DNA from: Candidatus Niyogibacteria bacterium
GTDB lineage: Bacteria; Patescibacteriota; Minisyncoccia; JACROR01
Length of the DNA: 48,100 nt
Assembly (NCBI GenBank): GCA_016214345.1
Contig: JACROR010000011.1
Coordinates: forward strand, 1 to 48,100
Direction: 5' to 3'
Of this stretch, positions 1,490 through 33,076 are shown piece by piece. A program made the translations under genes and the position numbers. Each line of letters begins with the position of its first letter. Positions within the stretch are counted from its first letter, which is position 1. The notes beneath the pieces were generated by a model, which saw only the letters and a list, made by a program, of their open reading frames with translations, did not search any database and was not told where the DNA came from.

Positions 1490-1530
1490 AACCCCTCACC
1501 TACAAAGTAGGTGAGGGGTTATTTTATTGT
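1490..1530 (+). terminator. Hairpin/intrinsic terminator between convergent genes; CCCCWCAC-family inverted repeat
   Basis: AACCCCTCACCTAC-aaa-GTAGGTGAGGGGTT (14-bp stem) followed by a T-rich tract. Confidence 0.7.
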
Positions 1531-1536
1531 TGTTGT

Positions 1537-2457
1537 TTATTTTGTTAATTCTTCCAATCTTTTCCCGAAATCGTTTCCGGGAGCAAACTCAAACCAGGTG
1601 TATCCGGCGTTACGATTGACCAATAATGCCGGATGTCGCCCGTCTTCTATATAAGAACCGGCGAGCATCTGCAAAACAAAACTGTATATCTCGTCCTTAT
1701 CATGATAACTCTCTTTCATTCCGCAAAATCCTTTATGGGTATTGCGAAGTTCTTCGGTAAAATCCTTGAAATTAAAACTCTTCATTTCCTCGGCGAGCTT
1801 ATAAGCCGTCAGAACTAACTGAAAGTAAGAATTCTTGCGGAGTTTTGCAAAGATCTTCCCTTCGCGCATGATCATGCGCGACAGCAAACGTATCTCGTCT
1901 TCCATAACCTGCTGGCTGTCATTCTTATACACCCAAGGCGACGCGTTTTCCAACGCCTCATCTTTCATCAGAAAAATAATGTCGCGAAAACTCTCTGTCT
2001 GGCTGCCCCTCAACAATCCTTTGAAAGTATTTTGCTTCATAGAAGAAACTATGATAACTTTTTTGCCATATTCTTCGTACAAATCAGCTAAGGGCGCGAA
2101 ATAATGATCTCCGCTTCCGATCACTAAAATATCCGGAGCGGTTTCGGGATCAGATAAAAACGAAACGGCAACGCTGTATATGTGCTCATCGGTTACATCA
2201 TCATCACGCATGCCCTCGGTCGTCAAAACCGGCATAGCATAAGGGATCGCCCGCAAAATTTCTTTGATCTCCGACATATTTCCCGGCACGCAATGATACG
2301 GCATGAAAATCAAAAATTGCGATAAATAACCGCGCTTGGAAAATTCGGAAATCAACGCGTCCCATCTGATAGACATGCCGCGCTCTTTTATGGGGATGGT
2401 CAAATTGTCAAAATCTCCCACAACCGCGATGCGAAGCTTTTTCTGGGAACTGTCCAT
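1537..2457 (-). CDS. NYN domain (LabA/DUF88, PIN-like) protein with C-terminal extension
   Basis: VVGDFDNL and LVIGSGDHYFAPL...GKKVIIVS motifs. SD AGGGAG favours ATG 2457 over GTG 2463. Confidence 0.75.
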   Translation of the reverse strand: MDSSQKKLRIAVVGDFDNLTIPIKERGMSIRWDALISEFSKRGYLSQFLIFMPYHCVPGNMSEIKEILRAIPYAMPVLTTEGMRDDDVTDEHIYSVAVSFLSDPETAPDILVIGSGDHYFAPLADLYEEYGKKVIIVSSMKQNTFKGLLRGSQTESFRDIIFLMKDEALENASPWVYKNDSQQVMEDEIRLLSRMIMREGKIFAKLRKNSYFQLVLTAYKLAEEMKSFNFKDFTEELRNTHKGFCGMKESYHDKDEIYSFVLQMLAGSYIEDGRHPALLVNRNAGYTWFEFAPGNDFGKRLEELTK

Positions 2458-2586
2458 AAGCACTCCCTTCTGTCATTTTTAAAGTACTAAGTTATCCGAA
2501 CTGCCATATTCCATAATTCCGAATAAATATATCACATTTGGTAAAACATTGCAATGGTCGCTTTTTACCTATAATCTAAATATTAA

Positions 2587-3459
2587 ATGGCAACCCAACC
2601 TAAAGAAAAATATAAAACCATAACGCTGGATGAAAAGAGTTATCCGGCGCTGCTTCGTGAAATTCCCGACCCGCCTGAAACCCTCTACATGCTCGGCAAT
2701 TTCCATGATTGGCATAAACCCGCGATAGCGATCGTAGGCACCCGAAAAGCCACCTCTTACGGCCTGCGCGCGGCGCGCGCCCTCGGATGCGAATTGGCAG
2801 CCGCCGGCATAACCGTGGTAAGCGGACTCGCCCTGGGTATTGACGCGGAAGCGCACCGAGGCGCCTTGGAAGCGAACGGCAACACCGTCGCCGTTTTAGG
2901 GTCGGGCATAAACATGATCTATCCGGCGACCAATCGTCCACTCGCGGAAAAAATAATAGAGCAAGGCGGCGCTGTAATATCGGAATTTTCCCCAGATCTT
3001 CCGCCGGAAAAATGGACCTTCCCGCAAAGAAACCGCATAATCGCCGGATTATCAAACGTAACGCTCGTAATTGAGGCCCCGGAAAAAAGCGGCGCGCTTA
3101 TTACCGCTTACCTCGCGCTGGAATACAACCGCGAAGTCGCCGCCCTGCCCGGAGAAATAACTTCCCTCAATTCACAAGGCACGAACAAGCTCATAAAACT
3201 GGGAGCGGCTATAATAAGAAGTGCGGACGATGTGCTGGAACTCTTGGGATTAAACGCTCCTAATCCGAAAACTTTATTTGACAAATTGGACAAAATAGAA
3301 AATGTTATACTGCAATGCCTAAACAAACCGCAGAACAAAGATGAAATGCTTGACCTAACGCAATTGCCTGCAGACATATTAAATCAAAAATTGTCTTCGC
3401 TTGAATTAAAAGGCGCGATTAAAAATAACGGAGGATTATATGAAATTAGTAATAGTTGA
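2587..3459 (+). CDS. dprA: DNA-processing protein DprA
   Basis: YPALLREIPDPP, AIVGTRKATSYG, VSGLALGID, FPQRNRIIAGLS, EAPEKSGALITA. Confidence 0.97.
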   Translation: MATQPKEKYKTITLDEKSYPALLREIPDPPETLYMLGNFHDWHKPAIAIVGTRKATSYGLRAARALGCELAAAGITVVSGLALGIDAEAHRGALEANGNTVAVLGSGINMIYPATNRPLAEKIIEQGGAVISEFSPDLPPEKWTFPQRNRIIAGLSNVTLVIEAPEKSGALITAYLALEYNREVAALPGEITSLNSQGTNKLIKLGAAIIRSADDVLELLGLNAPNPKTLFDKLDKIENVILQCLNKPQNKDEMLDLTQLPADILNQKLSSLELKGAIKNNGGLYEISNS

Positions 3460-5578
3460 GTCGCCCACCAAAGCCAAAACCATATCCAGATTTTTGGGAA
3501 AAGGTTTCACCGTGAAATCAAGCTACGGCCATGTCCGCGATCTTCCGGCATATAAACTGGGAATTGATCTGGAAAATAATTTTGAACCGCAATACGTCAT
3601 TCCCAAAAAATCCGCCAAAATAGTCAAAGATCTGAAAAGCGAATTGAAAAACGCGGACACTCTGATACTCGCGACCGATGAAGACCGCGAGGGCGAGGCT
3701 ATTGCCTGGCATTTACTCCAAGCGTTGGATGTGAATGGCGCCGGCGCCAAAAAGAAAAAAAAGGATGCGGATACTCCAAAAATTCCGCCCAAAATAGAAC
3801 GCATAGTTTTTCACGAAATAACCAAACCGGCTATAGAAAAAGCGCTTAGCTCGCCGCGGAACTTAGACCTTAACATGATAGACGCGCAACAAGCCCGCCG
3901 CGTTTTAGATCGTTTGGTAGGCTACAAACTGTCCCCTTTTCTCTGGAAAAAACTGATGCGCGGATTATCGGCCGGACGCGTGCAAAGCGTAGCCCTCCGC
4001 ATCATCGTAGAACGGGAAAAAGAAATAAAAGCCTTCCTGTCGCAGAAATACTGGCAAATAAACGCGCTGCTCAAAAAAACCGCCGCGACTGAAACCAACG
4101 AGACATTCCCGGCGCAAATGACCGCCATAGACGACAAGCCCATAGAAAAGCCCGGTCTTTTGGACGAAAATGAAACGCAAAAAATTTTAACGGATCTGAA
4201 CGCCGCGGATTGGAAAGTCGCGTCCATTGAAAAAAGACGCGTGGAAAAAACTCCCAAACCGCCCTTCACCACAAGTTCCTTGCAACAAGAAGCGTGGTCG
4301 CGTCTGCATTTTTCCGCCAAAAAAACCATGATGATCGCCCAGCAATTATACGAAGGCGTGGAATTAAAAAATAAAGGGCAGCTCGGTCTTATAACTTACA
4401 TGCGGACGGATTCCGTGAATATCGCGGGCGAAGCGCTCGCCGCCGCCTCGGCATTCATAAAGCAGGAACTGGGAGAAAAATATTCTCTGCCGGAGCCTCG
4501 CGTTTTCAAGACCAAATCCAAAACCGCGCAGGAGGCGCACGAAGCCATCCGTCCCACCCATCCGGACATCACCCCCAAATCCATAAAAACCGAATTAAGC
4601 CGCGACCAATTCGTGCTCTACGAAATTATATGGCAAAGATTTATCGCGTCGCAGATGGCGCCCGCTGTTTTTGACGGCACTACGGCAATAATTGACGCCG
4701 CCAACGCTTCGGCGGGACGCAAATATAGCTTTCATTCTTCCGGACAAATTATGCTTTTTGACGGATACATAAAAATTTACCCAATAAAAACCGAGGACTC
4801 GCTGTTGCCCAATCTTCAAGAAAACGACGCACTAACGGCGGAAAAAATAGAAAGCTCGCCGCATGAAACCGAACCGCCTCCGCGCTACACCGAAGCATCG
4901 CTCGTAAAAACTTTAGAAAAATTCGGCATAGGCCGCCCCTCCACTTACGCGCCCATTATCTCCACCATCCAAGACCGCGGCTATGTTACGAAAAACGACG
5001 CCAAAAGCTTTCTGCCCACCGAAATGGGAGAAAAAGTGGACAATATTTTGCTGGAACATTTCCCGCAAATCGTGGACATAGATTTTACGGCCAAAATGGA
5101 AGAAAGTTTGGACCAAATCGCGTCCGGAGAAAAAGCATGGCGGCCGACTCTCAAAGAATTTTACGAACCGTTTGAAAAACACCTCAAAGAAAAATACGAA
5201 ACCGTGGCAAAACAAAATTTGACCGAACCCACGGACGAAAAATGCGACAAATGCGGCGCGCCGCTCATCATCCGCTACGGCCGTTTCGGCAGATTTATGG
5301 CCTGCTCCGCCTTTCCGGAATGCAAATTCACCAAAGCATTGCCTCCGGTATCGCTAAACATCAAATGTCCCAAATGCGGCGACGGCGATGTGATAGAACG
5401 AAGAACCAAAAAAAGGCGGCTTTTCTACGGCTGTTCCAATTATCCCAAATGCGATTTTGCCACCTGGCAAAAACCCACGGGCAAATTGTGCATAGAATGT
5501 TCGTCGCCCTTAGTTGAATTGAAAAGCGGCATAAAATGCTCAAATAAAAACTGCAAATTCAAAGAAGGCGAAAAATGA
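3440..5578 (+). CDS. topA: DNA topoisomerase I
   Basis: LVIVESPTKAKTI, ATDEDREGEAIAWH, SAGRVQS, LITYMRTDS, C-terminal Zn ribbons. Confidence 0.98.
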   Translation: MKLVIVESPTKAKTISRFLGKGFTVKSSYGHVRDLPAYKLGIDLENNFEPQYVIPKKSAKIVKDLKSELKNADTLILATDEDREGEAIAWHLLQALDVNGAGAKKKKKDADTPKIPPKIERIVFHEITKPAIEKALSSPRNLDLNMIDAQQARRVLDRLVGYKLSPFLWKKLMRGLSAGRVQSVALRIIVEREKEIKAFLSQKYWQINALLKKTAATETNETFPAQMTAIDDKPIEKPGLLDENETQKILTDLNAADWKVASIEKRRVEKTPKPPFTTSSLQQEAWSRLHFSAKKTMMIAQQLYEGVELKNKGQLGLITYMRTDSVNIAGEALAAASAFIKQELGEKYSLPEPRVFKTKSKTAQEAHEAIRPTHPDITPKSIKTELSRDQFVLYEIIWQRFIASQMAPAVFDGTTAIIDAANASAGRKYSFHSSGQIMLFDGYIKIYPIKTEDSLLPNLQENDALTAEKIESSPHETEPPPRYTEASLVKTLEKFGIGRPSTYAPIISTIQDRGYVTKNDAKSFLPTEMGEKVDNILLEHFPQIVDIDFTAKMEESLDQIASGEKAWRPTLKEFYEPFEKHLKEKYETVAKQNLTEPTDEKCDKCGAPLIIRYGRFGRFMACSAFPECKFTKALPPVSLNIKCPKCGDGDVIERRTKKRRLFYGCSNYPKCDFATWQKPTGKLCIECSSPLVELKSGIKCSNKNCKFKEGEK

Positions 5579-7296
5579 GCTGGGAAGAATACACCAAACA
5601 ATTGGACCGCTGTGGCGTCCCCCAAGACGGACGAGACTTGATCAAACAAGCTTTTTTGTTCGCGCATCAAGCGCACGAAAATCAAACCCGTTTCTCCGGA
5701 GAACCGTATGTGAACCACACCATAAATGTTTCTTTGAAAGTGGCGGCTTTGCGTTTGAACGCGGCGGGCATAGCGGCCGCACTGCTTCACGACACGGTGG
5801 AAGACGACAAGGCCTCGCTTAAAACCATACGCAAAAAATTCGGCCCCGAAGTCGCCCTCTTGGTGAACGGCTTAACCAAGGTTAAAAAAATAAAATATCA
5901 GGGCGTAGAGCGGCAAGTGGAATCCATGCGCAAAATGTTTTTGGCGCTGGCCGAAGACATCAGGGTGGTCATCATCAAACTGATGGATCGCATGCACAAC
6001 ATGGAAACTCTGGAATACCACCCCAAAGAAGAAAAAAGAAAACGGATCGCTCTGGAAACTCTGGAAATTTACGCCCCTCTCGCCGACCGCCTCGGCATGT
6101 GGAATGTAAAATCGCAACTGGAAGACTTGGCTTTTAAGTATGTCTATCCCGAAGAATACAAATGGATTACGGAAGAAGTAAAAGAAAAAATTCCGGAACG
6201 GGAAAAATATTTAGAAACCATTCTGCCCATATTAAAAAAAGGGTTAAACAAAGAAGGAGTGCGGCCGCTGGAAGTTTCTTGGCGCGCGAAACATTATTAC
6301 AGCATCTGGAAAAAACTCTCCAAAAAAGGCATGGACTGGGGGCGCATCAAAGACCTGGCCGCCATGAGAATCATAGTTAAAGACATAGAAGCCTGCTACG
6401 CGACCTTGGGTGTCATACACACGCTCTGGCGGCCTCTGCCCGGGAGAATAAAGGATTACATAGCTCTGCCCAAACCCAACGGCTACCAGAGTCTGCACAC
6501 CACGGTTTTTTGCGAAAACGGCAAAATAACGGAATTCCAAATCAGGACTCCGGAAATGCATCGGGACGCGGATTTCGGCATCGCGGCGCACTGGGCTTAC
6601 GAGATGGCCGGCAAAAAAAGCGACGGCTCGCCGGCGCAATCGCAAAAATTCGCGTGGGTGCGCCAGCTCCAAGAATGGCAAAAAGATTTCAAAAAAGGCA
6701 AGCAATCCAGCCAAGAATTTTTAGATTCGCTCAAGATCGATTTTTTCAAAGATCGCATATTCGCGCTGACGCCCAAAGGCGATGTCATTGATCTGCCGGA
6801 AGACGCGACACCGATTGACTTCGCTTATCATATCCATTCCGAGATAGGAGACCAAACGTCGGGATGCAAAGTAAACGGCCGCATGGTGCCTCTCTCTCAT
6901 AGCTTAAAATCGGGCGATGTGGTGGAGATGCTCATCCAAAAAAACAAAAAACCCTCCCAAGAATGGCTGGAACTGGCGAAAACCTCGCTCGCCAAGAACC
7001 GCATACGCTCCGCGATAAAAAAGAAGTCTCTTTTGTTGCGTCCCCAGGCCGCGCAACCAAGAACCGAGCTGGTCATTACCGCCGCGAACCGCGTAGGATT
7101 GATCAAAGACATAAGCGCGATATTCGCGGGATTCCGCATCAACATAGAATCCATAAAAAGCGAAACCGCGGGTACGGATTATCCCATAGTGAGCATAGTA
7201 TTCACGCCCAAAAACGAAGAGCAAACGGAAAAAATAAAAACCCGGATAAAAAAATTACCGGGAATTGAAAATATAAATTTAAAACCGCATCGCTGA
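5575..7296 (+). CDS. rel: RelA/SpoT family bifunctional (p)ppGpp synthetase/hydrolase (HD-SYNTH-TGS-ACT)
   Basis: RFSGEPY, LLHDTVED, KDYIALPKPNGYQSLHTTV, EFQIRT, TPIDFAYHIH, C-terminal ACT. Confidence 0.95.
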   Translation: MSWEEYTKQLDRCGVPQDGRDLIKQAFLFAHQAHENQTRFSGEPYVNHTINVSLKVAALRLNAAGIAAALLHDTVEDDKASLKTIRKKFGPEVALLVNGLTKVKKIKYQGVERQVESMRKMFLALAEDIRVVIIKLMDRMHNMETLEYHPKEEKRKRIALETLEIYAPLADRLGMWNVKSQLEDLAFKYVYPEEYKWITEEVKEKIPEREKYLETILPILKKGLNKEGVRPLEVSWRAKHYYSIWKKLSKKGMDWGRIKDLAAMRIIVKDIEACYATLGVIHTLWRPLPGRIKDYIALPKPNGYQSLHTTVFCENGKITEFQIRTPEMHRDADFGIAAHWAYEMAGKKSDGSPAQSQKFAWVRQLQEWQKDFKKGKQSSQEFLDSLKIDFFKDRIFALTPKGDVIDLPEDATPIDFAYHIHSEIGDQTSGCKVNGRMVPLSHSLKSGDVVEMLIQKNKKPSQEWLELAKTSLAKNRIRSAIKKKSLLLRPQAAQPRTELVITAANRVGLIKDISAIFAGFRINIESIKSETAGTDYPIVSIVFTPKNEEQTEKIKTRIKKLPGIENINLKPHR

Positions 7297-7321
7297 ACGC
7301 GGGGCAATTTCTAAATATACA

Positions 7322-7359: not shown

Positions 7360-7362
7360 GAT

Positions 7363-8754: not shown

Positions 8755-8818
8755 CTAATACCCCCTCATCTTTCAATGGATAGGATGCAAGCTTCCGAAG
8801 CTTGCGATGTAGGCCCGT

Positions 8819-8913
8819 CCCCACACTAATCCTCTTGTCGTTCAATGGACAGGACACCTCCCTCCGAAGGAGGAGATGCAGGTTCGATTCCTGCCGAGAG
8901 GATTAGTGTGGGG
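8819..8913. mobile_element. Inverted-repeat-bounded cassette carrying the inner tRNA
   Basis: CCCCACACTAAT (8819-8830) / ATTAGTGTGGGG (8902-8913); same repeat as at 32780/33076. Mobility is inferred. Confidence 0.6.
8831..8902 (+). tRNA. Inner intact tRNA-Arg(CCG)
   Basis: CCTCTTG/CGAGAGG acceptor, GTTC-AATGGACA-GGAC, CCTCC-CTCCGAA-GGAGG, GCAGG-TTCGATT-CCTGC, discriminator A. No encoded CCA. Confidence 0.93.
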
Positions 8914-8981
8914 GTGAGAATTCCTACTGAGGGGACAACAAAATAGGTTATAGTTTCTAGGTTATAACTTACGAGTGACAA

Positions 8982-12723: not shown

Positions 12724-12767
12724 GGTTGATTTTCTTAATTGAGCGAAGCGAGATTTTGAAAATCGCC

Positions 12768-12866
12768 ACCCCTCACCTTTTAATTATTTTTTTAATATCT
12801 GCAGATTTTAAATTATTCGCGCTAATTTTTATCCTAATGCAATTTAATTTGCCAAAGGTGAGGGGT
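12768..12866. repeat. CCCCWCAC-family 13-bp inverted repeat enclosing a 73-nt AT-rich spacer
   Basis: ACCCCTCACCTTT (12768-80) / AAAGGTGAGGGGT (12854-66). An adjacent hairpin at 12728-12764 has GAGCGAAGCGA in its loop. Confidence 0.75.
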
Positions 12867-12926
12867 TCTCAAAAATTATAACCGCTTTGCTTCTTAATTT
12901 TTGGAAAATTGGTGCGGGATAACAAT

Positions 12927-16286: not shown

Positions 16287-16321
16287 CCATAATGTGCGTG
16301 ACTCGGTGACGCACATTATGG
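16287..16321. repeat. REP-like palindrome left of RAYT
   Basis: CCATAATGTGCGT-gactcggtg-ACGCACATTATGG. Confidence 0.88.
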
Positions 16322-16333
16322 TAAAATATCTCT

Positions 16334-16984
16334 ATGAGAAAATTTACTCCAGAAAAAGAAAATTTTTACCACATCGTAAATCGCGGAACCGAAAAACGAC
16401 GAATATTCCTGAATCACAAAGATTATGAAAGATTTATTGCCAATATGGTCGCCTTTAATACCGAAAACGATCCCCGACTTAATATTTCACGATATAATCT
16501 TAATAAAATTTTTCAGCACATCCCCACCAATCGGCTGGTTAAAATACATGCTTTCTGCCTACTACCGAACCACTTTCATTTATTATTAGAACAGTTGGCT
16601 GAAAACGGGATCTCTCGATTTATGCACAGATTAGAGATGGGCTATGCCAGATATTTTAATATTTTGCATAACAGAAACGGCAATCTTTTCCAGGGCGCAT
16701 ATAAATTGGTGCCAATGGAAGATGAGGCGCATCAATTATATTTACCTATTTATATCCACCTTAATCCGCTTGACTTGTTGCCGACTGAAAAACATTGGCG
16801 AGAAAATGGAATTAAAGATCACCACCAAGCCATGGCTTTTCTTAAAAAATATCCGTGGTCAAGTTTTACAGAATACTACGGAACTGGCAACCTCCCCTTC
16901 ATAAGCAAAGAATTACTAAATGATCTTTATAAAAATTCTGACGATTGGGATCGTGCAATAATGTCTTGGTCCTCCAAAAAGTAA
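16334..16984 (+). CDS. REP-associated tyrosine transposase (RAYT, HUH/Y1 family)
   Basis: YHIVNRG, AFCLLPNHFHLLL (HUH), GNLFQG, YIHLNP, YPWSS. AT-richer than its flanks. Confidence 0.92.
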   Translation: MRKFTPEKENFYHIVNRGTEKRRIFLNHKDYERFIANMVAFNTENDPRLNISRYNLNKIFQHIPTNRLVKIHAFCLLPNHFHLLLEQLAENGISRFMHRLEMGYARYFNILHNRNGNLFQGAYKLVPMEDEAHQLYLPIYIHLNPLDLLPTEKHWRENGIKDHHQAMAFLKKYPWSSFTEYYGTGNLPFISKELLNDLYKNSDDWDRAIMSWSSKK

Positions 16985-16995
16985 ATATCTTCTTA

Positions 16996-17028
16996 AAAAA
17001 TGTGCGTCACCGAGTCACGCACATTTTT
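16996..17028. repeat. REP-like palindrome right of RAYT (inverted copy)
   Basis: 16999-17025 is the exact reverse complement of 16291-16317 (27 nt). Confidence 0.88.
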
Positions 17029-18399: not shown

Positions 18400-18663
18400 T
18401 TATTCCAAAGACATGATCTGCAAACCGTTTTCTTCTATTTCCTTTTTCTGGCCAAAATCATCCGATTTGAAACGCAAAACATAACCAACTTTCTTTTCTA
18501 TTTTTCTGCCCGTATATCTAGAGGTTTGTGGATCCCACTCTTCAAGCATCAGTGTATCGCCTTCCGCCGCCTCAAAATCAGCCGTCCTTACTTCAAATTT
18601 TTTCTTGCCAAACGCCACCAGTTCAAAAAATTCCGGCCAAATTTTCTTTTTGATCAATGCCAT
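18400..18663 (-). CDS. DUF3850/ASCH-like (PUA fold) small protein
   Basis: KIWPEFFELV..GKKKFEVR..DF..GD.L.LEEWDP....YTGR; start overlaps the metG stop. Confidence 0.8.
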   Translation of the reverse strand: MALIKKKIWPEFFELVAFGKKKFEVRTADFEAAEGDTLMLEEWDPQTSRYTGRKIEKKVGYVLRFKSDDFGQKKEIEENGLQIMSLE

Positions 18664-23895: not shown

Positions 23896-25803
23896 CTATT
23901 GACCATTCTGAACCTGATATTCTCCGGACTTTATTTGCGTATCCGAGAAAAGCTGCGTGGTAAGCGCGCCCTTGGCATCCCGCAAAACCACCCCCGTAAA
24001 AGTGTCGTCTCCTTCGGCTATGGCATCCGATATCAATACCGGCATTCCCCCGACTTGCGAAAGAGAAGGAATTAACCCCAGCTGAAAAGCAATCTCACGC
24101 GCCGGCCTTAAAATGCCGGTGCCCGCCTTAAGCTCTCCCACCTCCCACACGATCTTGCCGCTAAGCTCGTCAAAAGCGATCTTTTCATCAGACGGCAGAG
24201 AACGCCCCAGCCAACTCATATAAGAAGGCAGGGAAGCGTAAACTTTAACATTTTTCAGATCATTAGACCAATTGGCAAGCGACCATACTAAGGTATAGGT
24301 AGTTTTTTGTCCGACTTGCGGCGGTAATGGCCCGTCATTCGGCATCAGAGTGGAATAAAAATATCCCTGACTGGATAATTGCAAATTGGAAGAAATTTTT
24401 ACTTCTTTAAAAAGCCGTCCGTCTATATCCACGCCGTCAAATCCCTGCGGCCGCTCTCCGGCGTACATATGAGCCTGAAGGCGAGCTGAGAAATTAATAT
24501 CCTCCGCTTGTTTTATAGGCAGACTTTTCAAAATATCCAGACTAAACGATACGTCTCCCTCTTGACCGGCGGCAAGATAAGCAAAAATCGGATTGGAAGA
24601 CGAATTCCAAATCATAGTATTGTCGCTGCCCCTGTAAAATCCTTGACCCGTGTAAACGGTTTTCTTGTCCCATCCGCCGCCTTCAATGCCAATTTCCAAA
24701 ACGACATTTTTTACGGTAACCGGCAAATTATTTTTCCAATGAACCTTAACCTCCAAACGATCTCCCGCTTTGGCGATATACTCATCTCGGTTGTTAATAG
24801 TCGCCGATAGATCCAAGAACGGCTTCCTTAAAGTGGTCGTGATCACTCCCGCTCCGTAAACCACCAAGTGGCCGTCCTTGTCCATGGCGCCAACAGATAA
24901 TTTAAACAACTTGCTCTCCAAATCATTTCCATCTATCTTGCCCTTAACGCGTATAATCCTTTGCTGTTGAGGGGCGAGATCTTTTACTTCCCAGGTATTA
25001 TTGGAAAAGGATGGCAAAGGATCGGCGGATATGAATTCAAAACCTTGCGGATATATCGCCTCCAAAGTCAGTCCTTGTATGACTTCCGCTGAATTGGAAT
25101 TATACGTTATATCCAATAATATCTCCTGCCCTATGTTGCTCTGTTCAGGAACATTCAAAGAAATACCGATAGGTGAAGTAATCAATTTAAAAGAATAGGG
25201 CGCGTTTTTGGCAAGAATGGCATTAGAGCCCTGCGCGCGATACTCCAAAATCGCGGCCGCTTCTTCAACGCTTCCCTGTTCGCCAAAAACCGTGGCTTCA
25301 AAAACTTCTTCCACGTATTCACCTGCCGCGACATGCCCTAAATAACGCTTCTCGGTCAAAGGAGACGTCAGGTCGCCTTTTTTATTGACTGGCCGGGAAT
25401 TATCCGGATAATTGAAGGTGATTTCCACGCCCTCCAACGCTATATCATTTTTATTTTGCATAATCACGTGCCATGAGGCTTTTTCCCCTCCATTTATGCT
25501 TTGCGGCCCAGCCACGTTGAAACTCAAATTGTCGGACGACACGCCGCCAAACCATCCAAACAAAAAACCCAACGCGGCAAAAAGCACTACTGCCACGAAT
25601 AAAGACAGTCCCACGATCAATTTAGTCATATGCGGCATTTTGGGAGATGCGGGCGCGGCAATGCCTTTCCATTCCAAAGGAGCCTCTTCCGTCTCTCTCT
25701 TATAAGCCCTGACCTCTTCCAGCGTGTCCTTGGCAAATCTTCGCTTCAGATCTTTGCTTTGACCGTATAGCTTCCTTTTTAATTTTTCCAAACCATCCGC
25801 CAT
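23896..25803 (-). CDS. Membrane-anchored beta-rich (Ig-like/DUF11-like repeat) surface protein
   Basis: One TM helix followed by repeated beta-sandwich-like segments. Start reassigned to ATG 25803 because TATAAT lies 7 nt upstream and it avoids overlap with recO. Confidence 0.65.
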   Translation of the reverse strand: MADGLEKLKRKLYGQSKDLKRRFAKDTLEEVRAYKRETEEAPLEWKGIAAPASPKMPHMTKLIVGLSLFVAVVLFAALGFLFGWFGGVSSDNLSFNVAGPQSINGGEKASWHVIMQNKNDIALEGVEITFNYPDNSRPVNKKGDLTSPLTEKRYLGHVAAGEYVEEVFEATVFGEQGSVEEAAAILEYRAQGSNAILAKNAPYSFKLITSPIGISLNVPEQSNIGQEILLDITYNSNSAEVIQGLTLEAIYPQGFEFISADPLPSFSNNTWEVKDLAPQQQRIIRVKGKIDGNDLESKLFKLSVGAMDKDGHLVVYGAGVITTTLRKPFLDLSATINNRDEYIAKAGDRLEVKVHWKNNLPVTVKNVVLEIGIEGGGWDKKTVYTGQGFYRGSDNTMIWNSSSNPIFAYLAAGQEGDVSFSLDILKSLPIKQAEDINFSARLQAHMYAGERPQGFDGVDIDGRLFKEVKISSNLQLSSQGYFYSTLMPNDGPLPPQVGQKTTYTLVWSLANWSNDLKNVKVYASLPSYMSWLGRSLPSDEKIAFDELSGKIVWEVGELKAGTGILRPAREIAFQLGLIPSLSQVGGMPVLISDAIAEGDDTFTGVVLRDAKGALTTQLFSDTQIKSGEYQVQNGQ

Positions 25804-25819
25804 AATCTCTATTATACAT

Positions 25820-26404: not shown

Positions 26405-26407
26405 GAA

Positions 26408-29400
26408 TTATTTTTTTATGCCAATGGTAACCACGCCGTAATCCAACGCGAGCTCCTCCTTAAAAAAGTCTTCCGGGATCGCGTTCAAATTTATCTCCCG
26501 CGCCGAAACGGCAACCATCAGATCATTTTTATATTTTTCCAAAAGAGAGCGCGCCTCACCCTCCGCGACAAACGCCAAGTCTACTTTGTCCTGCGGCAAT
26601 AAATTCATATTTTTCCGCATATCCTGAATTTTTCGCGCCAATTCGCGCAGCATTCCCTCTTCTTTAAGTTCTTGAGAAATGACGAGATCCAATTCCACGT
26701 CGCCAACAATGCTTTCATCAAAAATAATTTCTTTAACATTCAATTCATCTTTCAAAAGACGCGCAAGTTTCTCATCAGGCTCTAGGTTTTGGTTTTTAGT
26801 TTTTAGTTTTAGCGCGGCAAGCGGCTGGCGCACCTTGATGCCGGCTTTGGCGCGCGCCTCCAACCCCAGAGAAACCAAACGGCGAACCTCTTGCATGAAT
26901 CTGACGAGCGCCATCTCTGCCTCATCGGGTCGTGGCAACTCCGGATAATCTTCCAAATGCACGCTTTCTTTATCGCCGCCCAACAACTGATAAATTTTCT
27001 CGGACACAAAAGGAGCGAACGGCGCGGTTAGTTTAGCGAACTGAAGGAAAACATAACGGGTCGTGGCGACTGCCGACGCCTTATCCTCACCTTCTTCTTT
27101 AAAACGTTCGCGCGATCTTCGCAAATACCAGGTTGACAGATCATCCACGAATTCGCCCACAGGCCTTACCGCCCTGTCTAACTCATAACTATCCATGCTT
27201 GCCGACACTTCGGACAAAACTTCTTTCAATCTTGCCACGATCCATTTATCCAGCATATTCTCACTTTTTGGAGGCTTAGCCTCCAAATCGGTATATACGC
27301 CCTCCGGCGCGTACATCTCATAAAAATTATAAACATTGGTCAGGCGCAAAATGATCTTTTTATTGATCTCGTCCACGCCTTTCTCGGAAAAATTCAAACT
27401 CTCGGCGCGCACCACAGGAGACGACAATAAATACAAACGCAGCGCGTCCGCTCCGTATTTTTCCACCACCTCCATCGGATCGGGATAATTTTTCAACCGC
27501 TTGGACATTTTTTGTCCGTCCTCCGCCAAAATAATTCCGCTGGTTATGACATTTTTAAACGCAGGCTTGCCGAAAAGCGCCGTGGAAAGCACCAAAAGAT
27601 TATAAAACCACCCGCGCGTCTGATCCACCGCTTCGGCGATGAATTCCGCGGGAAAATTTTTCTCAAACAATTCCTTATTCTCAAAAGGATAATGAATCTG
27701 CCCATAAGGCATGGAGCCGGACTCAAACCAGCAATCAAAAACTTCCGGCACGCGCGAGACTTCTCCGCCGCATGAACAGGGCAATTTAATTTCATCAATG
27801 TAGGGACGATGAAAATCCAACTCAAAATTAGCGTTGTGTGGCAACGGATAAAAATCTAGCGCCTGCACTTCGGCGTAATGTATAAAATTGTCTTTGTCTT
27901 CCTTCATGGCTAATGAGCGAGGCGTATCCGCGCCCTCCGCTCCGGCAGAAAGCATCCAAATCGGATATTCGTGGCTCACAATCAAAATATTTTTGCCGCG
28001 ATATTTTTTATCAATGTCATACAAAAATCCTGCCATGCGATTTTTAAGTTCCGTCAGATTTTCACCCTCCGGAGGATTTTTATAAAATTTCTCCTCGCGC
28101 GATGAAAAATATTTATGATAATTCGCCGCGTCCTGCCTGTCAAAAATTCCTACATTATATTCGCGCGCGCGCGGATCGGCTATAACAGCATTTTGCGCGA
28201 CACCCAGCTCCTTTGCCACAATCTCCGCGGTTTCTTGAGTACGCCTAAAATCCGAATGAATAATCAGGTTAACGCCTTTTCCTTTGAGCGCCGCGGCCGA
28301 TTTTTTGGCTTCGGCGCGCCCCTTTTCCGTAAGCGCGTAATGATTATTTTCAATATTTGAATTAACTATGTTTTTAACATTATTTTCCGATTCGCCATGC
28401 CGCATCACGAAATATTTATTACCAGACAAAGCGGACGATGCGCGCAGGTCTTCGCGCGATCCCAAAACTTTTACAGCCTCGCACTTACCGCACCGCCACA
28501 CGGGCAACGGCGCGCCCCAAAAACGCGAACGGGAGATGGCCCAATCGCGCGCGCCCGTGAGCCATTTGCCGAAACGCCCGTCTTTAATATGCCCCGGCAC
28601 CCAGTTTATTTTTTGATTATTATCCAGCAGTCCACCCTTGCCATCTTTAATGGAGGTTACTTTTACGAACCACGAAGAAGCCGCGTAATTCAGTAGCGGC
28701 GTGTCGCATCTCCAGCAATGCGGATACGAGTGCGTGATCTTTTTCTTATCAAAAAAATTGCCGTGCTCTTGCAAGTATTTTATTACGGCGATGTCCGCGG
28801 ACAGCCGTTCTTTTTCATCTTCGGACTTCGGTTTTACGTACATTCCCGCGAAATCCGTTACCTCCGGCTTGAATTTTCCGTCCATGCTCACATGCTGGAT
28901 AAAAGGCAAATTTTCTTTTTGTCCCAAATTCATGTCGTCCTCGCCGAACGCCGGCGCGATATGCACCACGCCGGCGCCTTCCTCCGTGGTTACAAAATCC
29001 GCGCCGTAAATTTTATAGGCATTTTCCCACTTATCCGTCTCTTCCCGGTCCGAGGCCGGTCCGCCTTGGGCGGAAAAAATTGGTTGATATTTTTTACCGA
29101 CTAAATTACTGCCTTTAAACTCAGAAATTATTTCATACGGCTCATCTTTTAATACTTCAGCAATTCTCTCTTTCGCAAAAATATAAAATTCCGGAATTTT
29201 TAATTTTTCGTTTTTAATTTTTAGCTTACAATAAACAATTTCGTTATTTATTGCGAGCGCCACATTCCCCGGCAGAGTCCACGGCGTTGTCGTCCACGCC
29301 AAAATATAAGTATTTTCATCAGTCGTAAAATCTCCAATCTTCTGTCCCGCTTCCAATTTAAACTTCACCGTCACCGACAGATCGGTAATATCCTTGTATC

Positions 29401-29986
29401 CTTGCGCCACTTCAAAATTGGCAAGCGTGGTCTCACAGCGCGGGCAGATGTGCATCGGCTTGTACCCTTCATATATAAGCCCCTTGTCGTAGAGCGTTTT
29501 GAAAACCCACCATACCGATTCGGTATAGGTGGCGTCCATGGTCTTGTAGTCGCTTTCCATGTCTACAAAGCGTCCCACGCGCGGAATTATTTTTTTCCAA
29601 TCATCCGAGTAACGAAGCACGCTTTTTTTCGCCGCTTCGTTAAATTTCGCGATGCCGAATTTTTCTATGTCTTTTTTGTGTTCCAACCCCAGATCTTTTT
29701 CGATCAAATTCTCCACTGGCAATCCATGACAGTCCCAACCCCAGCGGCGCGGAACCCTGTACCCTTTCATGGTGCGATAGCGCGGCACCGCGTCTTTCAA
29801 AATACTCTGCAAAATATGCCCGTAATGCGGCAAGCCCGTGGCAAAAGGCGGGCCGTCGTAAAATACAAAATCTCCGCGCGGCGCGGCTTTCTCAAGCGAT
29901 CGTTCAAAAATGCGATTTTCCTGCCAAAACCGCAAAACCTCCTCCTCGCCCCATTTATTTTTGCCGGATTTTTCTTCTTCGGACAT
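26408..29986 (-). CDS. ileS: Isoleucine--tRNA ligase (type 2-like) with inserted histidine-phosphatase domain
   Basis: DGPPFATGLPHYGH, GWDCHGLP, WTTTPWTLP, DWAISRSRFWG, KMSKR; internal RHGES domain. Confidence 0.98.
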   Translation of the reverse strand: MSEEEKSGKNKWGEEEVLRFWQENRIFERSLEKAAPRGDFVFYDGPPFATGLPHYGHILQSILKDAVPRYRTMKGYRVPRRWGWDCHGLPVENLIEKDLGLEHKKDIEKFGIAKFNEAAKKSVLRYSDDWKKIIPRVGRFVDMESDYKTMDATYTESVWWVFKTLYDKGLIYEGYKPMHICPRCETTLANFEVAQGYKDITDLSVTVKFKLEAGQKIGDFTTDENTYILAWTTTPWTLPGNVALAINNEIVYCKLKIKNEKLKIPEFYIFAKERIAEVLKDEPYEIISEFKGSNLVGKKYQPIFSAQGGPASDREETDKWENAYKIYGADFVTTEEGAGVVHIAPAFGEDDMNLGQKENLPFIQHVSMDGKFKPEVTDFAGMYVKPKSEDEKERLSADIAVIKYLQEHGNFFDKKKITHSYPHCWRCDTPLLNYAASSWFVKVTSIKDGKGGLLDNNQKINWVPGHIKDGRFGKWLTGARDWAISRSRFWGAPLPVWRCGKCEAVKVLGSREDLRASSALSGNKYFVMRHGESENNVKNIVNSNIENNHYALTEKGRAEAKKSAAALKGKGVNLIIHSDFRRTQETAEIVAKELGVAQNAVIADPRAREYNVGIFDRQDAANYHKYFSSREEKFYKNPPEGENLTELKNRMAGFLYDIDKKYRGKNILIVSHEYPIWMLSAGAEGADTPRSLAMKEDKDNFIHYAEVQALDFYPLPHNANFELDFHRPYIDEIKLPCSCGGEVSRVPEVFDCWFESGSMPYGQIHYPFENKELFEKNFPAEFIAEAVDQTRGWFYNLLVLSTALFGKPAFKNVITSGIILAEDGQKMSKRLKNYPDPMEVVEKYGADALRLYLLSSPVVRAESLNFSEKGVDEINKKIILRLTNVYNFYEMYAPEGVYTDLEAKPPKSENMLDKWIVARLKEVLSEVSASMDSYELDRAVRPVGEFVDDLSTWYLRRSRERFKEEGEDKASAVATTRYVFLQFAKLTAPFAPFVSEKIYQLLGGDKESVHLEDYPELPRPDEAEMALVRFMQEVRRLVSLGLEARAKAGIKVRQPLAALKLKTKNQNLEPDEKLARLLKDELNVKEIIFDESIVGDVELDLVISQELKEEGMLRELARKIQDMRKNMNLLPQDKVDLAFVAEGEARSLLEKYKNDLMVAVSAREINLNAIPEDFFKEELALDYGVVTIGIKK

Positions 29987-30044
29987 GAATCTATTGTAAT
30001 AAAAAAAGCGCCTTTATTAAAGCGCTTTCCATAATCAAATATTA

Positions 30045-31646
30045 TCACATTTTATCCGGCGCGTTGATGCCCAGAAGGCCCAAAACGGTTTTCAGGATCT
30101 TTTGCGTTTCGCTGATCAAATAAATCCTCGCCGCCTCGTTCTCTCCGGAATTCAGCACCCGCACATCGCGGTAAAATCCGCTGAAAGCGTAAGCCAATTC
30201 GTAGGCGTAAGAGGTCAGGCGATGCACCTGATAATCCGCGGCCGTATCTTCCACAATCTCCGAAAATCTCGCCAATTTTTTGATCAAGGCAAGTTCCGAT
30301 GGATGTTGCAACCCCACGATAGAAATTCGTTTCTTTAATTTCGCCCCGCCTTTAGCATTCTTCAAAATACTGCTTATCCTCGCGTGGGCATATTGCACGT
30401 AATAAACCGGATTTTCCGCCGACTGCTTTTTGGCAAGCTCCAGATCAAAATCCATGTGGGTATTTAACGCCTTGTCCAAGAAAAACCACCGCAGCGCGTC
30501 AATGCCAACTTCCCGCAGCAGGTCTTCCAAATAAATCACGTTACCCGCGCGTTTGGAAAACTTTTTGCGCAATGCGCCAACTTTTAGCGTTACTAATTGC
30601 GAAATTAAAATATTCAGGTCGCCCTTCCAACCGAGCATTTTTTTCGTCGCCTCCATTCTTTTGACATGACCATGATGATCCGCGCCCCAGATGTCAATCA
30701 CTTTTTTGTATCCTCGTTTGAATTTATCCGCGTGATAAGTGATGTCCGACAAAAAATAGGAATATGATTTATCCGAGCGCACCACCACGCGATCCTCGTC
30801 GTCTCCGAACTCGGCGGTTTTCAGCCACATTGCTCCGTCTTTTTCATAAACCAGTTTTTCTTTTTGGAGCGACGTCAAAGTCTTTTCAAAAATTCCTTTG
30901 GCGCGCAAAGCGCCCTCTTCCGAATACCATTTTCCGAATTTTATTCCCAAATCAGCCTCAATGAATTTTTTATTATCTTTCTGAATCTCTTCCGCAAGCA
31001 AAAATCCCGCCTCGCCATATAGATTAGTTTGTAGTTTGTAGTCCGCCGGCTGGCGGATAGGTTGTAGGTTTTTGAGTTTCGCGCTTTGCGCTTTACGCTT
31101 TACGCTCAAATAATCCGTCAGATATTTCGTGCCCTCGCCCAGCGCGGTTTTACCCAGCTCTTTTATCTGCGCGGACTCTTTGGAATCATTGATGAAATAT
31201 TCCCGATCCACGCGGCAACCCGCGTAAACAAACACGCGGGAGAGCGCGTCGCCGTAAAAAGCGCCTCGGCCGTGGCCGATATGAAGTTTGCCGGTCGGAT
31301 TGGCGGAAATGAATTCCAAATTAATCTTTCCGGCTTTTTTGGGAAATTTTTTGCCTAAACTTTCAAATGCGCGCCGGAGCGCCGCGTGAGAAAGCCAAAA
31401 ATTCAGAAATCCGGGGCCCGCCACCTCCGTCTTCTCTACATATTCATTGAATCGCGCAGATCCACGCAATTTATCCGCGAGCTTTTGAGCTACTTCTTTG
31501 GGATTGCCCGTCCGCAAAACCAAAGCGGCGTTCGTGGCATAATCTCCGAACCGCTCTTCCGCCGCGACTTCAAAATTTATCTCTTTGCCATAAAGATTAA
31601 AAATCGCTTTTTTGAGTTCGGTTTTCAGAAAATCGCGCGTGGTCAT
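30045..31646 (-). CDS. argS: Arginine--tRNA ligase
   Basis: FGDYATNAAL, GPGFLNF, EFISANPTGKLHIGHGR, GADHHG, YYVQYAHARI. Start moved to ATG 31646 because the upstream extension overlaps a terminator and a small ORF. Confidence 0.96.
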   Translation of the reverse strand: MTTRDFLKTELKKAIFNLYGKEINFEVAAEERFGDYATNAALVLRTGNPKEVAQKLADKLRGSARFNEYVEKTEVAGPGFLNFWLSHAALRRAFESLGKKFPKKAGKINLEFISANPTGKLHIGHGRGAFYGDALSRVFVYAGCRVDREYFINDSKESAQIKELGKTALGEGTKYLTDYLSVKRKAQSAKLKNLQPIRQPADYKLQTNLYGEAGFLLAEEIQKDNKKFIEADLGIKFGKWYSEEGALRAKGIFEKTLTSLQKEKLVYEKDGAMWLKTAEFGDDEDRVVVRSDKSYSYFLSDITYHADKFKRGYKKVIDIWGADHHGHVKRMEATKKMLGWKGDLNILISQLVTLKVGALRKKFSKRAGNVIYLEDLLREVGIDALRWFFLDKALNTHMDFDLELAKKQSAENPVYYVQYAHARISSILKNAKGGAKLKKRISIVGLQHPSELALIKKLARFSEIVEDTAADYQVHRLTSYAYELAYAFSGFYRDVRVLNSGENEAARIYLISETQKILKTVLGLLGINAPDKM

Positions 31647-31689
31647 AAATTCATTATCGTTTTGTTTACCGTATTTTGCAAACCTTACC

Positions 31690-31723
31690 AAAATAAAAGG
31701 CGCTCCGTTTAACGGAACGCCTT
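31690..31723 (-). terminator. Intrinsic terminator after the small ORF
   Basis: Minus strand AAGGCGTTCCGTTAAACGGAGCGCCTT followed by TTATTTT. Confidence 0.65.
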
Positions 31724-31756
31724 GATAGCTGGTCTTATTGCGCGCCCTTACTTCTC

Positions 31757-31846
31757 CTAAATATAAGGAAAAAGGAGCGCGAATAGGATAAGCAGGAAAC
31801 ACGCGATCATGCACAGATGAGCCAATTTTTCAAAAGCGTTGCGCAT
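31757..31846 (-). CDS. Small single-TM peptide (29 aa), not in the ORF track
   Basis: SD AAAGGAG, then MRNAFEKLAHLCMIACFLLILFALLFPYI*, then a terminator. Confidence 0.55.
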   Translation of the reverse strand: MRNAFEKLAHLCMIACFLLILFALLFPYI

Positions 31847-31857
31847 ACTCTTCTCCT

Positions 31858-32214
31858 TTAAATGTGGCGGATGGTTTGGCGGCGGTCGCAGAGCAATTTT
31901 TTCTCGCGGCCGCGCGGTCCATGAGATTCGTGAATCTTGTCGCCCTTCCGCACGATCACGCCGTGCATCCGGAATATCTGATGCCGCGGCTCAAAGGTCG
32001 GAACATTTTCCAGAGCGCTCTCCGCGATAACATGCTCCGATGCCCCGCTTTCCGCCGGCTTTTCTGCCGCAAGCACCGGCTCTTTCCGCCGTTCGCGCGG
32101 ATGATGATCGCTTTGCGCGGCAACCCGCGCGCGCTTCGCCTGCCGTTCCTCTTTGACGATCAGAAAATCGTCCAACGACCGGAAAAGGCGCCTATTCGAT
32201 ATTGGCCTTGCCAT
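31858..32214 (-). CDS. Hypothetical basic protein (118 aa)
   Basis: SD GGAGG upstream of ATG; apparent operon with the small TM peptide; no recognisable motif. Confidence 0.55.
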   Translation of the reverse strand: MARPISNRRLFRSLDDFLIVKEERQAKRARVAAQSDHHPRERRKEPVLAAEKPAESGASEHVIAESALENVPTFEPRHQIFRMHGVIVRKGDKIHESHGPRGREKKLLCDRRQTIRHI

Positions 32215-32328
32215 AAAACCTCCAAAAATGTTGTAAAATAACCGTTTTTTACTTTAAAAACAATATATCACTTTTTACCAGAAAAGTCAATAGTTTAATA
32301 ACCTCCTGAAAATGAGTATTATTTCAAT

Positions 32329-32772
32329 ATGCCTACGCTGATACAAAACAAACGGGCGCATTTTGATTACGAGATCCTGGAAAAATTGGAAGCCGGTTTG
32401 GAATTGCGCGGCTTTGAAACCAAAGCGTTGAAAAACGGCATGGGAAGTCTGGTGGGTAGCCGCGTGCTTATCCGCGGCGGAGAGGCCTTTGTGGTCAATA
32501 TGGAAATAGCGCCCTACCAGCCGGCCAACGCGCCCAAAGATTACGACTCACGCGCTCCGCGGCGGCTGCTTTTACACAAAAAAGAAATAAGCTATCTGGA
32601 AGGCAAATCTCATGAGAAAGGCTTGACTTTGGTGCCAATTTCGTTGTATACTAAGGGCAATTTGATCAAGCTGGAATTCGGCGTGGGTCGCGGCAAGAAA
32701 AAATCCGACAAACGGGAAGCAATCCAAGAGCGTGAAACCAAACGCAAAATAGAGCGCACATTGAAATTGTAG
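32329..32772 (+). CDS. smpB: SsrA-binding protein SmpB
   Basis: NKRAHFDYEILEKLEAGLEL.G.E.K, RRLLLHKKEI, GLTLVP, GKKKSDKRE. Confidence 0.98.
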   Translation: MPTLIQNKRAHFDYEILEKLEAGLELRGFETKALKNGMGSLVGSRVLIRGGEAFVVNMEIAPYQPANAPKDYDSRAPRRLLLHKKEISYLEGKSHEKGLTLVPISLYTKGNLIKLEFGVGRGKKKSDKREAIQERETKRKIERTLKL

Positions 32773-32779
32773 GGTCTGA

Positions 32780-33076
32780 CCCCCACACTAATTAAGGATT
32801 TGAATCATGTTCTATGTTTATATATTACAAAGTTTGAAAGATAAACAATTATACATCGGCTACTCCGAAGATTTGAAACGCAGAATACAAGAACATGATT
32901 CAGGCAAAAATAAATCAACAAAATACCGAAGACCATTTAGACTGGTTTATTACGAGGCGTATCAATCGAAAATGGATGCGCAAAACAGAGAAACCAATTT
33001 AAAGCTTTTTGGTAGGGCGTTGGGAGGATTAAAGCGGAGAATTAAAATCAGCTTAAATCCTTAATTAGTGTGGGGG
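32780..33076. mobile_element. 22-bp inverted-repeat-bounded cassette carrying a GIY-YIG gene
   Basis: CCCCCACACTAATTAAGGATTT (32780-32801) / AAATCCTTAATTAGTGTGGGGG (33055-33076), a perfect inverted repeat. Mobility is inferred. Confidence 0.7.
32807..33064 (+). CDS. Stand-alone GIY-YIG nuclease
   Basis: FYVYILQS...LYIGYSEDLKRRIQEH..G...STKYRRP..LVYYE......A..RE..LK. Confidence 0.93.
   Translation: MFYVYILQSLKDKQLYIGYSEDLKRRIQEHDSGKNKSTKYRRPFRLVYYEAYQSKMDAQNRETNLKLFGRALGGLKRRIKISLNP

Follow-up and report, generated by a model that had tools for sequence, protein, structure and literature searches.

The four hairpin-bounded sites in a 48,100-nt stretch of the genome of Candidatus Niyogibacteria bacterium (GCA_016214345.1, contig JACROR010000011.1, positions 1–48,100 of the forward strand; hereafter the window) belong to one superfamily of small insertions, which have perfect inverted repeats as their boundaries, each opening with a run of Cs followed by CAC, here CCCC(A/T)CAC. 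The family clusters at genes for stable RNAs, namely tRNA, transfer-messenger RNA (tmRNA), rRNA, and RNase P RNA, a location overlooked in the original prediction, an earlier annotation of the window that had proposed an undescribed, cargo-capturing hairpin element. The full-length form of ~295–300 bp contains a single open reading frame (ORF) of 83–85 residues inside its arms, which encodes a UPF0213-like GIY-YIG nuclease, and this ORF-plus-arms module is conserved across genomes of the candidate phyla radiation (CPR)/Patescibacteria. Tentatively, we read the family as CPR-wide autonomous elements of ~300 bp, with an ~85-residue GIY-YIG nuclease as their sole gene and hairpin arms of ~21 bp, which would reside in or beside stable-RNA genes, be expressed from the transcripts of their hosts, and be neutralised at the RNA level by the arm helix. 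Such elements may have spawned both ORF-less copies and tRNA cassettes that overwrite resident tRNAs via their T- or D-loops.

The four inverted repeats claimed in the original prediction, with their shared CCCC(A/T)CAC outer arm, were all found. The eight matches to CCCCWCAC in the window are exactly the eight arms of the four pairs; shuffled sequences contain 1.27 matches on average, and none of 100 shuffles reaches eight. The full-length element is located at positions 32780–33076 of the forward strand (297 bp), between smpB (32329–32772), its upstream neighbour, and ssrA. It has perfect arms of 22 bp (CCCCCACACTAAT...) and contains a stand-alone, UPF0213-like GIY-YIG nuclease ORF of 85 residues (32807–33064, forward strand; PF01541, E = 7.9e-17). 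As RNA, the arms close one large hairpin (z = −7.6). The tmRNA gene (33073–33416, forward strand, 118.9 bits) begins within the element, and its nucleotides 1–4 (GGGG) are the final four bases of the right arm, an overlap that the earlier annotation had overlooked. The second member, at positions 8819–8913 of the forward strand, is a 95-nt hairpin-bounded tRNA cassette with 17-bp arms and an intact tRNA-Arg(CCG) at 8831–8902. The third is an ORF-less single-copy member without assigned strand (12768–12866), located where a spacer separates glmS from a TrmB-like gene. Its unit of 97 nt (12769–12865) is composed of 12–13-bp arms and a 73-nt AT-rich interior, which has no second copy in the genome. 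The fourth is a cargo-less hairpin of 27–33 nt (1489–1521, also without assigned strand) positioned between convergent genes, the arms of which begin CCCCTCACCTAC and enclose the loop AAA. The 12-bp perfect arms and 3-nt loop span positions 1492–1518, and 15 pairs are formed when the flanks are included (1489–1521). A near-identical second copy is present on another contig of the genome (C17:18589; C numbers denote contigs), and 11 arm bases are common to a 145-nt element within the 23S gene (C21:14682). The hairpin is either a minimal family member or a derivative of the solo-arm type.

The genome that includes the window (G000, 691,332 bases in 32 contigs, ~45% GC, 92.6% complete; the window is contig C3) contains many more members. 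The original prediction had called for a genome-wide inverted-repeat scan against chance. Such a scan identified 20 matched pairs, defined as arms within 600 nt of each other, whereas 60 simulated first-order Markov genomes contained none. The motif CCCCWCAC itself occurs 59 times, compared with 17.3 ± 4.5 times in the simulations. A motif-free census of perfect inverted repeats identified extra members with variant ends, for example TCCCTCAC, TCCCGCAC, and CCCCGCAC; the perfect arms of the members in this genome are 12–22 bp long. Two ORF-less families are present in multiple copies. Family A (~135 nt) has seven copies with 88–100% identity, and family B (~195 nt) has four copies, as well as a fragment of 24 nt and a nearly arms-only copy of 41 nt. 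Several of the family A and B copies touch contig ends, and the copy counts are therefore upper bounds. More generally, contigs often end inside repeats (C1/C6, C9, C11, C17, C32). C1 and C6 share a stretch at their 3′ ends, in reverse orientation and spanning two elements, and this overlap joins the 16S gene, tRNA-Ile, the two elements, and tRNA-Ala.

The ORF-less copies are linked to the nuclease gene by their arms. A second full-length GIY-YIG unit, located on C1, is 298 bp long and encodes a protein 59% identical to that of the window, and 21 of 21 of its arm bases are identical to the arms of ORF-less family B. The sequence CCCCACACTAAT is common to the window unit, the tRNA cassette, and two AT-rich copies borne by rRNA genes. 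Thus, a member that bears the nuclease is found in two of the three arm subfamilies. In terms of the features used to recognise MITEs (miniature inverted-repeat transposable elements), the family in G000 has terminal inverted repeats, small size, and near-identical ORF-less copies in multiple positions; a target duplication of fixed length was not found.

The association of arms and ORF is also found outside this genome. A scan of one genome per species, seeded with an alignment of six sequences, confirmed 565 relatives, and the statistics on homologue loci (L numbers) are based on the best 80 of them, nearly all of which are from Patescibacteria/CPR metagenome-assembled genomes (MAGs) according to their titles. 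Flanking inverted repeats with a score of 12 or more are present at 64 of the best 80 loci, compared with 2 of 264 shifted control positions. In 57 of the 64 arm-bearing loci, the ends are a C-run followed by CAC; the median span is ~300 nt, and the median arm is 19.5 bp long. Together with the 21 arm bases shared by the C1 unit and family B, the retention of the unit at 64 of 80 loci bears out the tie of the family to the GIY-YIG gene that had been proposed earlier. The nearest solved structures to the window protein are UPF0213 proteins of 96–107 residues (PDB: 1zg2, E = 4.4e-10). Residues Y5, Y16, G18, R26, H30, and E62 are invariant in a comparison of 13 sequences, and the catalytic core is intact. 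GIY-YIG homologues are present in 34 of 41 related genomes, G000 included, with up to nine per genome, some of which are interrupted by stop codons.

The inner parts of the arms had been noted to differ between copies and yet to remain complementary within each copy, and the same holds at 59 registered loci from other genomes. The pairing of arms from the same locus is 0.54–1.00 at arm positions 4–21, compared with 0.24–0.69 for arms swapped between loci. The pairing drops to background by position 22, and each position exhibits three or four pair types. Because pairing is kept through varied pair types and ends at ~21 bp, it is pairing and not sequence that is conserved in the inner arm, and the helix has a set length of approximately two turns.

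Members of the family have three kinds of placement at stable-RNA genes: 5′ of tRNA or tmRNA genes, in the T-loops of tRNA-Arg genes, and within the 16S, 23S, and RNase P RNA genes. In the 5′ placement, the first 7–10 nucleotides of the tRNA are present twice, which leaves an intact tRNA downstream of the element. In the T-loop placement, the insert supplies a foreign tRNA of matching anticodon, and the former gene degenerates. All four GIY-YIG genes of G000 are within ~120 nt of a tRNA or tmRNA gene. Upstream of tRNA-Ala on C1, the nuclease unit and another element are arranged in tandem, each followed by CCCGTAG (tRNA nucleotides 4–10), and a decayed copy of the CCCGTAG stretch is located farther upstream. 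Elements inside RNA genes include three in 16S (C6:1854, 2216, and 3297), two in 23S (C21:13159 and 14682), and one in RNase P RNA. In the RNA-gene insertions that were checked, which are sister copies of the four window members, the element takes the place of a short native helix tip. At 13 of the best 80 homologue loci, a tRNA or tmRNA begins 4–6 nt within the right arm, and an exact copy of tRNA nucleotides 1 to 7–11 forms the left flank in 10 of the 12 cases that involve a tRNA. Two further loci have a tRNA on the opposite strand at the right arm, and one has a tRNA just upstream. The host is a 16S, 23S, or RNase P RNA gene at five loci, and the ORF is co-oriented with it in every case.

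Filled and empty sites were compared by flank-anchored local alignments with G001, which represents a sister species of the same genus and is syntenic with G000 at ~83% identity, and with the further relatives G002 and G003. The presence/absence differences against relatives for which the original prediction had asked were found at the same sites in genomes of the same genus or family. The GIY-YIG unit is missing from the smpB–ssrA spacer of all three relatives read (G001, G002, and G003), and an element is present at the same smpB–ssrA position in a MAG (L057). The copy at 12769 is absent from the spacer between glmS and the TrmB-like gene of G001, and one copy of family A, one copy of family B, and the 41-nt copy are likewise absent from their G001 sites. 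The region of C26 that contains a family A copy has almost no counterpart in G001 or G003. At two sites in 16S, where G000 has elements of 130 and 135 nt, G001 has a native stretch of 10 nt and G003 one of 19 nt; we take these native stretches to be the tips of helices h17 and h44. The gene for tRNA-Phe is intact in G001 and follows a single copy of the 10 bases GCCGAGGTAG. In G000, a 134-nt element is inserted after nucleotide 10 of tRNA-Phe, and the GCCGAGGTAG bases are present on both sides of it.

None of the public sequencing runs contained half of the words sampled from the genome, the best value being 0.31. When one DNA and three RNA runs were compared with the 16S stretch, the depth and the joints were mostly from the rRNA of other organisms, and uncovered inserts are uninformative about excision. 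Only error-free contigs from the DNA run (records 5 and 8) are in agreement with the assembly, where the 2216 copy has its left junction and the 3297 copy its right one, and this run may derive from the source sample of G000.

The variable content of the elements described in the original prediction (empty, AT-rich, tRNA, or GIY-YIG gene) stands. Active cargo capture remains conjectural, and the tRNA copy is better read as a hairpin-bounded tRNA inserted into the T-loop of a resident tRNA-Arg(CCG). The 5′ part of the resident gene (8762–8813, forward strand), comprising the acceptor strand, D arm, anticodon arm, and 5′ T-stem, is collinear with the intact orthologue of G001. The 3′ part (8920–8935, forward strand), likewise identified by collinearity with G001, comprises the end of the T-loop, the 3′ T-stem, the 3′ acceptor strand, and the discriminator. 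The T-arm of the G001 gene is GTAGG-TTCGATT-CCTAC, and the cassette of G000 occupies that T-loop. ARAGORN did not call the outer tRNA, even when the insert was removed in silico with 12 choices of boundaries, and its identity therefore rests on the collinearity with G001. The inner tRNA (61.8 bits, 8830/8831–8902/8903) is the only tRNA-Arg with a CCG anticodon called by ARAGORN in the genome, and its acceptor stem is prolonged by the 11-nt arm extensions CCCCACACTAA and TTAGTGTGGGG. The anticodon stem of the outer tRNA differs from that of the G001 orthologue by fully compensated changes; it matches tRNA-Arg(GCG) of L145, so that exchange between tRNA-Arg genes explains it as well as selection does. 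The arm end CCCCTCA resembles the acceptor stem of the resident tRNA-Arg(CCG), but this likeness was noted post hoc and shows no co-variation in G001.

A second nested case is present at tRNA-Arg(TCT) on C8, with the same right junction, TGAGAATTCCTAC, as at tRNA-Arg(CCG). The outer tRNA-Arg(TCT) is intact in G001; in G000 it has lost U33 and has an altered T-stem. The inner one is clearly a different tRNA with the same anticodon. The genes for tRNA-Gln(TTG) and tRNA-Ser(GGA) of G000 also have arm extensions of 11–13 bp. In total, extensions of at least 11 bp are present at 4 of the 46 tRNAs of G000, and none of 183 control positions reaches 8 bp. The tRNA-Ser(GGA) of G001 has no arm extension, but its genomic context is different. 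Other tRNA-Arg-like matches in G001 were considered as arm-bounded copies and rejected, as they are different isoacceptors. Of 73 tRNAs in other CPR loci, one is arm-bounded, with a D-loop fragment on its left flank. It is found in L119, in which a tRNA-Thr is enclosed by 13-bp arms (CCCCGCACCTTCT; 1259–1357), the left flank is a fragment of a tRNA D-loop, and a solo 25-nt hairpin of the same family follows the tRNA-Thr at ~1385–1410. The simplest account of the cassettes is survivorship: an insertion into an essential tRNA gene is tolerated only if the insert brings a working copy.

The original prediction had named a RAYT (REP-associated tyrosine transposase, where REP denotes repetitive extragenic palindromic sequences) as a candidate mobiliser. 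The RAYT-like Y1_Tnp gene of the window (16334–16984) is flanked by its own, different hairpins of 12–13 bp at 16288–16322 and 16995–17027, which have six copies genome-wide. Private hairpin pairs flank four of the six Y1_Tnp genes of G000 (in the window and on C21, C2, and C15, each pair different), and none of them is a CCCCWCAC pair or has C-run arms. The textbook REP/RAYT layout is thus repeated several times within one genome of 0.69 Mb. Matches to DDE_Tnp_1, rve, and OrfB_IS605 were not found in G000 at its 92.6% completeness. With RAYT not supported and the three transposase families not found, the nuclease inside the unit is the best candidate for the mover. The C1 GIY-YIG unit would be a candidate for an autonomous partner that shares its ends with ORF-less copies, although GIY-YIG is not a known class of transposase.

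It is probable that the GIY-YIG nuclease drives mobility at the DNA level, and that the arms form an RNA helix that enables host RNA genes to tolerate the insert. In such a mechanism, the nuclease would cut, for example, tRNA genes at the conserved boxes of the D-arm or T-loop, leading to its own unit being copied in, and would act in trans on ORF-less copies with the same arm ends. Joining could proceed through short matches between the C- or G-run ends of the element and the target. The unit, mostly co-oriented with the host RNA gene, would be transcribed together with it, and the arms in the transcript would pair into a helix of ~21 bp. This helix may insulate the fold of the host RNA, or it may be cut out by RNase III as in the classical intervening sequences (IVSs) of rRNA, while RNase P would free a downstream tRNA. 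Insertions into T-loops would persist only where the insert carries a working tRNA. Removal or insulation of the arm helix in RNA would explain both why pairing is conserved over sequence and how essential single-copy RNA genes survive. A gene for RNase III is present in G000. Its presence, the fixed helix of ~21 bp, the co-orientation with the host gene, and the placement where relatives have only short native stretches all fit the intervening-sequence model.

Several observations weigh against this mechanism. The interiors of families A and B have no similarity to the GIY-YIG ORF. The window protein consists of a single Pfam domain over residues 1–66 of 85, and a separate DNA-binding domain is not evident. 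Clear arms are missing at 16 of the best 80 GIY-YIG loci, and of the three GIY-YIG matches in G001, the two that were read are not bounded by C-run arms; the arms are therefore not required for every GIY-YIG gene of the clade. One GIY-YIG gene of G001, on its contig C20, is located 5′ of tRNA-Leu and is associated with a duplication of ~50 nt that includes upstream bases and the 5′ part of the tRNA. Target duplications vary in length, from 9–10 bp at tRNA-Phe and 7–11 bp at other tRNAs to 3–5 bp (TCAA-like) at some copies of families A and B, and there is none at T-loop or rRNA sites. The enrichment at RNA genes could partly reflect survivorship in a gene-dense genome. Finally, the hairpin at 1492 and a short hairpin at the RNase P RNA site are retained at the same sites in G001, and some members may therefore be old or useful to the host. 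The GIY-YIG genes on C20 of G001 (~27760–28180, L053, and ~25330–25700) are at sites that have no such gene in G000. The left copy of the duplication at tRNA-Leu is broken by a GC-rich palindrome, and the same layout is found at tRNA-Gln in L010.

Some of these observations would suit an alternative that we consider unlikely, in which the GIY-YIG gene is a passenger. It would be a free-standing homing endonuclease gene that settles in or near existing hairpins and tRNA genes, and the spread of the hairpins would be due to something else, for example host recombination, slippage of replication at hairpins, a transposase missing from the assembly, or phage transfer. The unrelated interiors of families A and B, the armless genes in G001 and among the 80 loci, the irregular target duplications, and the hairpin-bounded tRNAs without a nuclease are in line with a passenger. 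However, in CPR lineages that are distant from one another, the ORF-plus-arms unit has a constant length of ~300 bp and ends in the same motif, GIY-YIG-bearing members belong to two of the three arm subfamilies of G000, and none of the three transposase families searched for was found.

It is improbable that the hairpins are immobile stems of the host, either leader–trailer helices that function in processing or intrinsic terminators, the common ends of which are dictated by a host RNA-processing factor. The hairpin at 1489–1521 looks like a bidirectional terminator, having a GC-rich stem and a T-run on both strands (by consensus match only), and G001 retains it in the same position, with the arms altered in a compensated manner. 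The caveat of the original prediction that the copies might be fixed terminators thus applies to this one copy. The short hairpin at the RNase P RNA site of G001, the termination of the arms at ~21 bp, and the leader–trailer pairing of 11–13 bp in 4 of 46 tRNAs also agree with host stems. In contrast, whole near-identical units occur at unrelated sites, the empty sites of the sister species have clean junctions and the filled ones duplicated target bases, units interrupt resident tRNA genes, and 42 of the 46 tRNAs have no such stem. The short hairpins at two unrelated loci (window 1492–1518; C4:28468–28664, compared with ~5167–5196 of C10 in G001) differ between the species in the same manner: their arms begin CCCCTCACC in G000 and CCCCCACC in G001, a concerted change.

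A mobile element acting at the RNA level in the manner of an intron, in which the hairpin would insert as RNA into stable-RNA loops, with reverse transcription or recombination then fixing it in DNA, is very improbable. The insertions in RNA hairpin loops (the T-loop, and sites within 16S and RNase P RNA) speak for it, but no Rfam intron family reaches gathering scores in the window or the searched loci, the unit contains no reverse transcriptase, and copies are also found in plain spacers and at tRNA 5′ ends with a DNA-type target duplication. We give the least credence of all to a family of REPs or their doublets (REPINs) moved by RAYT-like Y1 (HUH) transposases, to which the six Y1_Tnp matches, one of them in the window, and some left flanks ending in GTAG, a tetranucleotide typical of REP sequences, might point, because the RAYT genes carry other hairpins, none with C-run arms, GTAG is merely tRNA nucleotides 7–10, and the units consist of two distant arms instead of doublets of self-palindromic REPs.

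The family was called possibly undescribed in the original prediction, which is only partly correct. Published work already reports GIY-YIG ORFs from rRNA inserts of CPR bacteria, inserts that are not group I or group II introns, and regards them as sparse and outside homing (PMC11270868). That report concerns the same clade of organisms, and L068, L082, L113, and L136 are loci of that kind; its main text does not contain “inverted repeat” or “palindrom”, and it covers rRNA genes only, whereas the targets here are wider. In literature searches, with supplements outside their scope, neither the arm-bounded unit nor the targeting of tRNA genes, the duplication of tRNA 5′ ends, the ORF-less families, or the nested tRNA replacement was found to be described. 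The searches also returned nothing on UPF0213/YhbQ, on an association of GIY-YIG genes with MITEs or inverted repeats, or on GIY-YIG genes at CPR tRNA genes.

The closest anatomical counterparts are the IVSs of bacterial rRNA. The 23S IVS of Coxiella burnetii has a terminal stem of 28 bp, and its cleavage by RNase III is experimentally supported; in the same paper, an old suggestion that the IVS ORF might serve mobility is quoted, and a “remnant of transposition” is still a hypothesis (PMC4990558). As described there, IVSs resemble the family in their location in single-copy rRNA genes, the terminal repeats that form a long stem, the optional small ORF, and the patchy distribution. They differ in that the IVS ORF encodes S23p and the ORF here a GIY-YIG nuclease, and excision by RNase III, demonstrated for IVSs, would apply here by analogy. 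Furthermore, the present family extends to plain spacers and to the genes for tRNA, tmRNA, and RNase P RNA, and includes multi-copy ORF-less and tRNA-bearing forms.

SegB, which is encoded in the tRNA gene cluster of phage T4, is a free-standing GIY-YIG homing endonuclease (PMC2330249). Like the units here, it is a GIY-YIG gene among tRNA genes, and it favours the inheritance of itself and its flanks by cutting DNA without it. In contrast to the units, SegB is a phage protein and is not known to have bounding inverted repeats, ORF-less derivatives, or insertion inside RNA genes. It is reportedly larger than the 85-residue ORF and has a DNA-binding part. Bacterial MITEs, such as Correia and ERIC, are also small, ORF-less, present in many copies, bounded by terminal inverted repeats, and able to form RNA hairpins. 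The present family differs from MITEs in the variable length of its duplications, its strong bias for stable-RNA genes, and the lack of a DDE-type partner among the matches found, the candidate partner being the 300-bp GIY-YIG unit. REP/REPIN sequences with their RAYTs are similar in being hairpin repeats in small spacers, and G000 contains a genuine example; the arms here differ from the RAYT-flanking hairpins, as do the architecture and the partner gene. A ribozyme core of group I or group II introns was not recognised by Rfam in the window or the searched loci. Overall, the family files with IVS-like inserts and free-standing GIY-YIG genes; the evidence for its recent movement is unusually clear, and the link to the replacement of tRNA genes is unexpected.

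Other palindromes were observed next to the elements. Several of the C-run elements (window 12740–12768 and 12866–12900, C9:5273, C8:121087, and C8:124050) are enclosed by a further inverted repeat, imperfect and of the GATTTTGAAAATCGC/TCTCAAAAATTATA type, which suggests a larger composite repeat around them. A second palindrome family, with the core CCGCCAGCTGGCGG, is positioned directly after genes, including that of tmRNA (window 1454–1483 and 33424–33445, C5:2840, and C8:126061), and is terminator-like. Palindromes of the form GCCTGCC...GGCAGGC beside tRNA genes and GIY-YIG remnants (C8 ~18480–18500 and C1 ~2095–2110 of G000; L053 of G001) look like a third family of small hairpins.

The repeats of the family break assemblies, with many copies at contig ends, and interrupt the 16S, 23S, RNase P RNA, and tRNA genes, which affects the annotation of CPR genomes and work with marker genes. 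The family would account for some of the non-intron inserts with which CPR rRNA genes are unusually loaded, and a 300-bp unit with an 85-residue nuclease would rank among the smallest self-contained mobile elements. The origin and spread of IVSs have long been open questions, and a family of the same anatomy, with recent copying within one genome, clean empty sites in a sister species, and a nuclease gene, makes them testable. If the proposed mechanism is true, the classical rRNA intervening sequences would gain a mechanism of mobility, and the tRNA cassettes would represent a route of horizontal tRNA replacement, by which foreign tRNA genes take over from essential single-copy ones.

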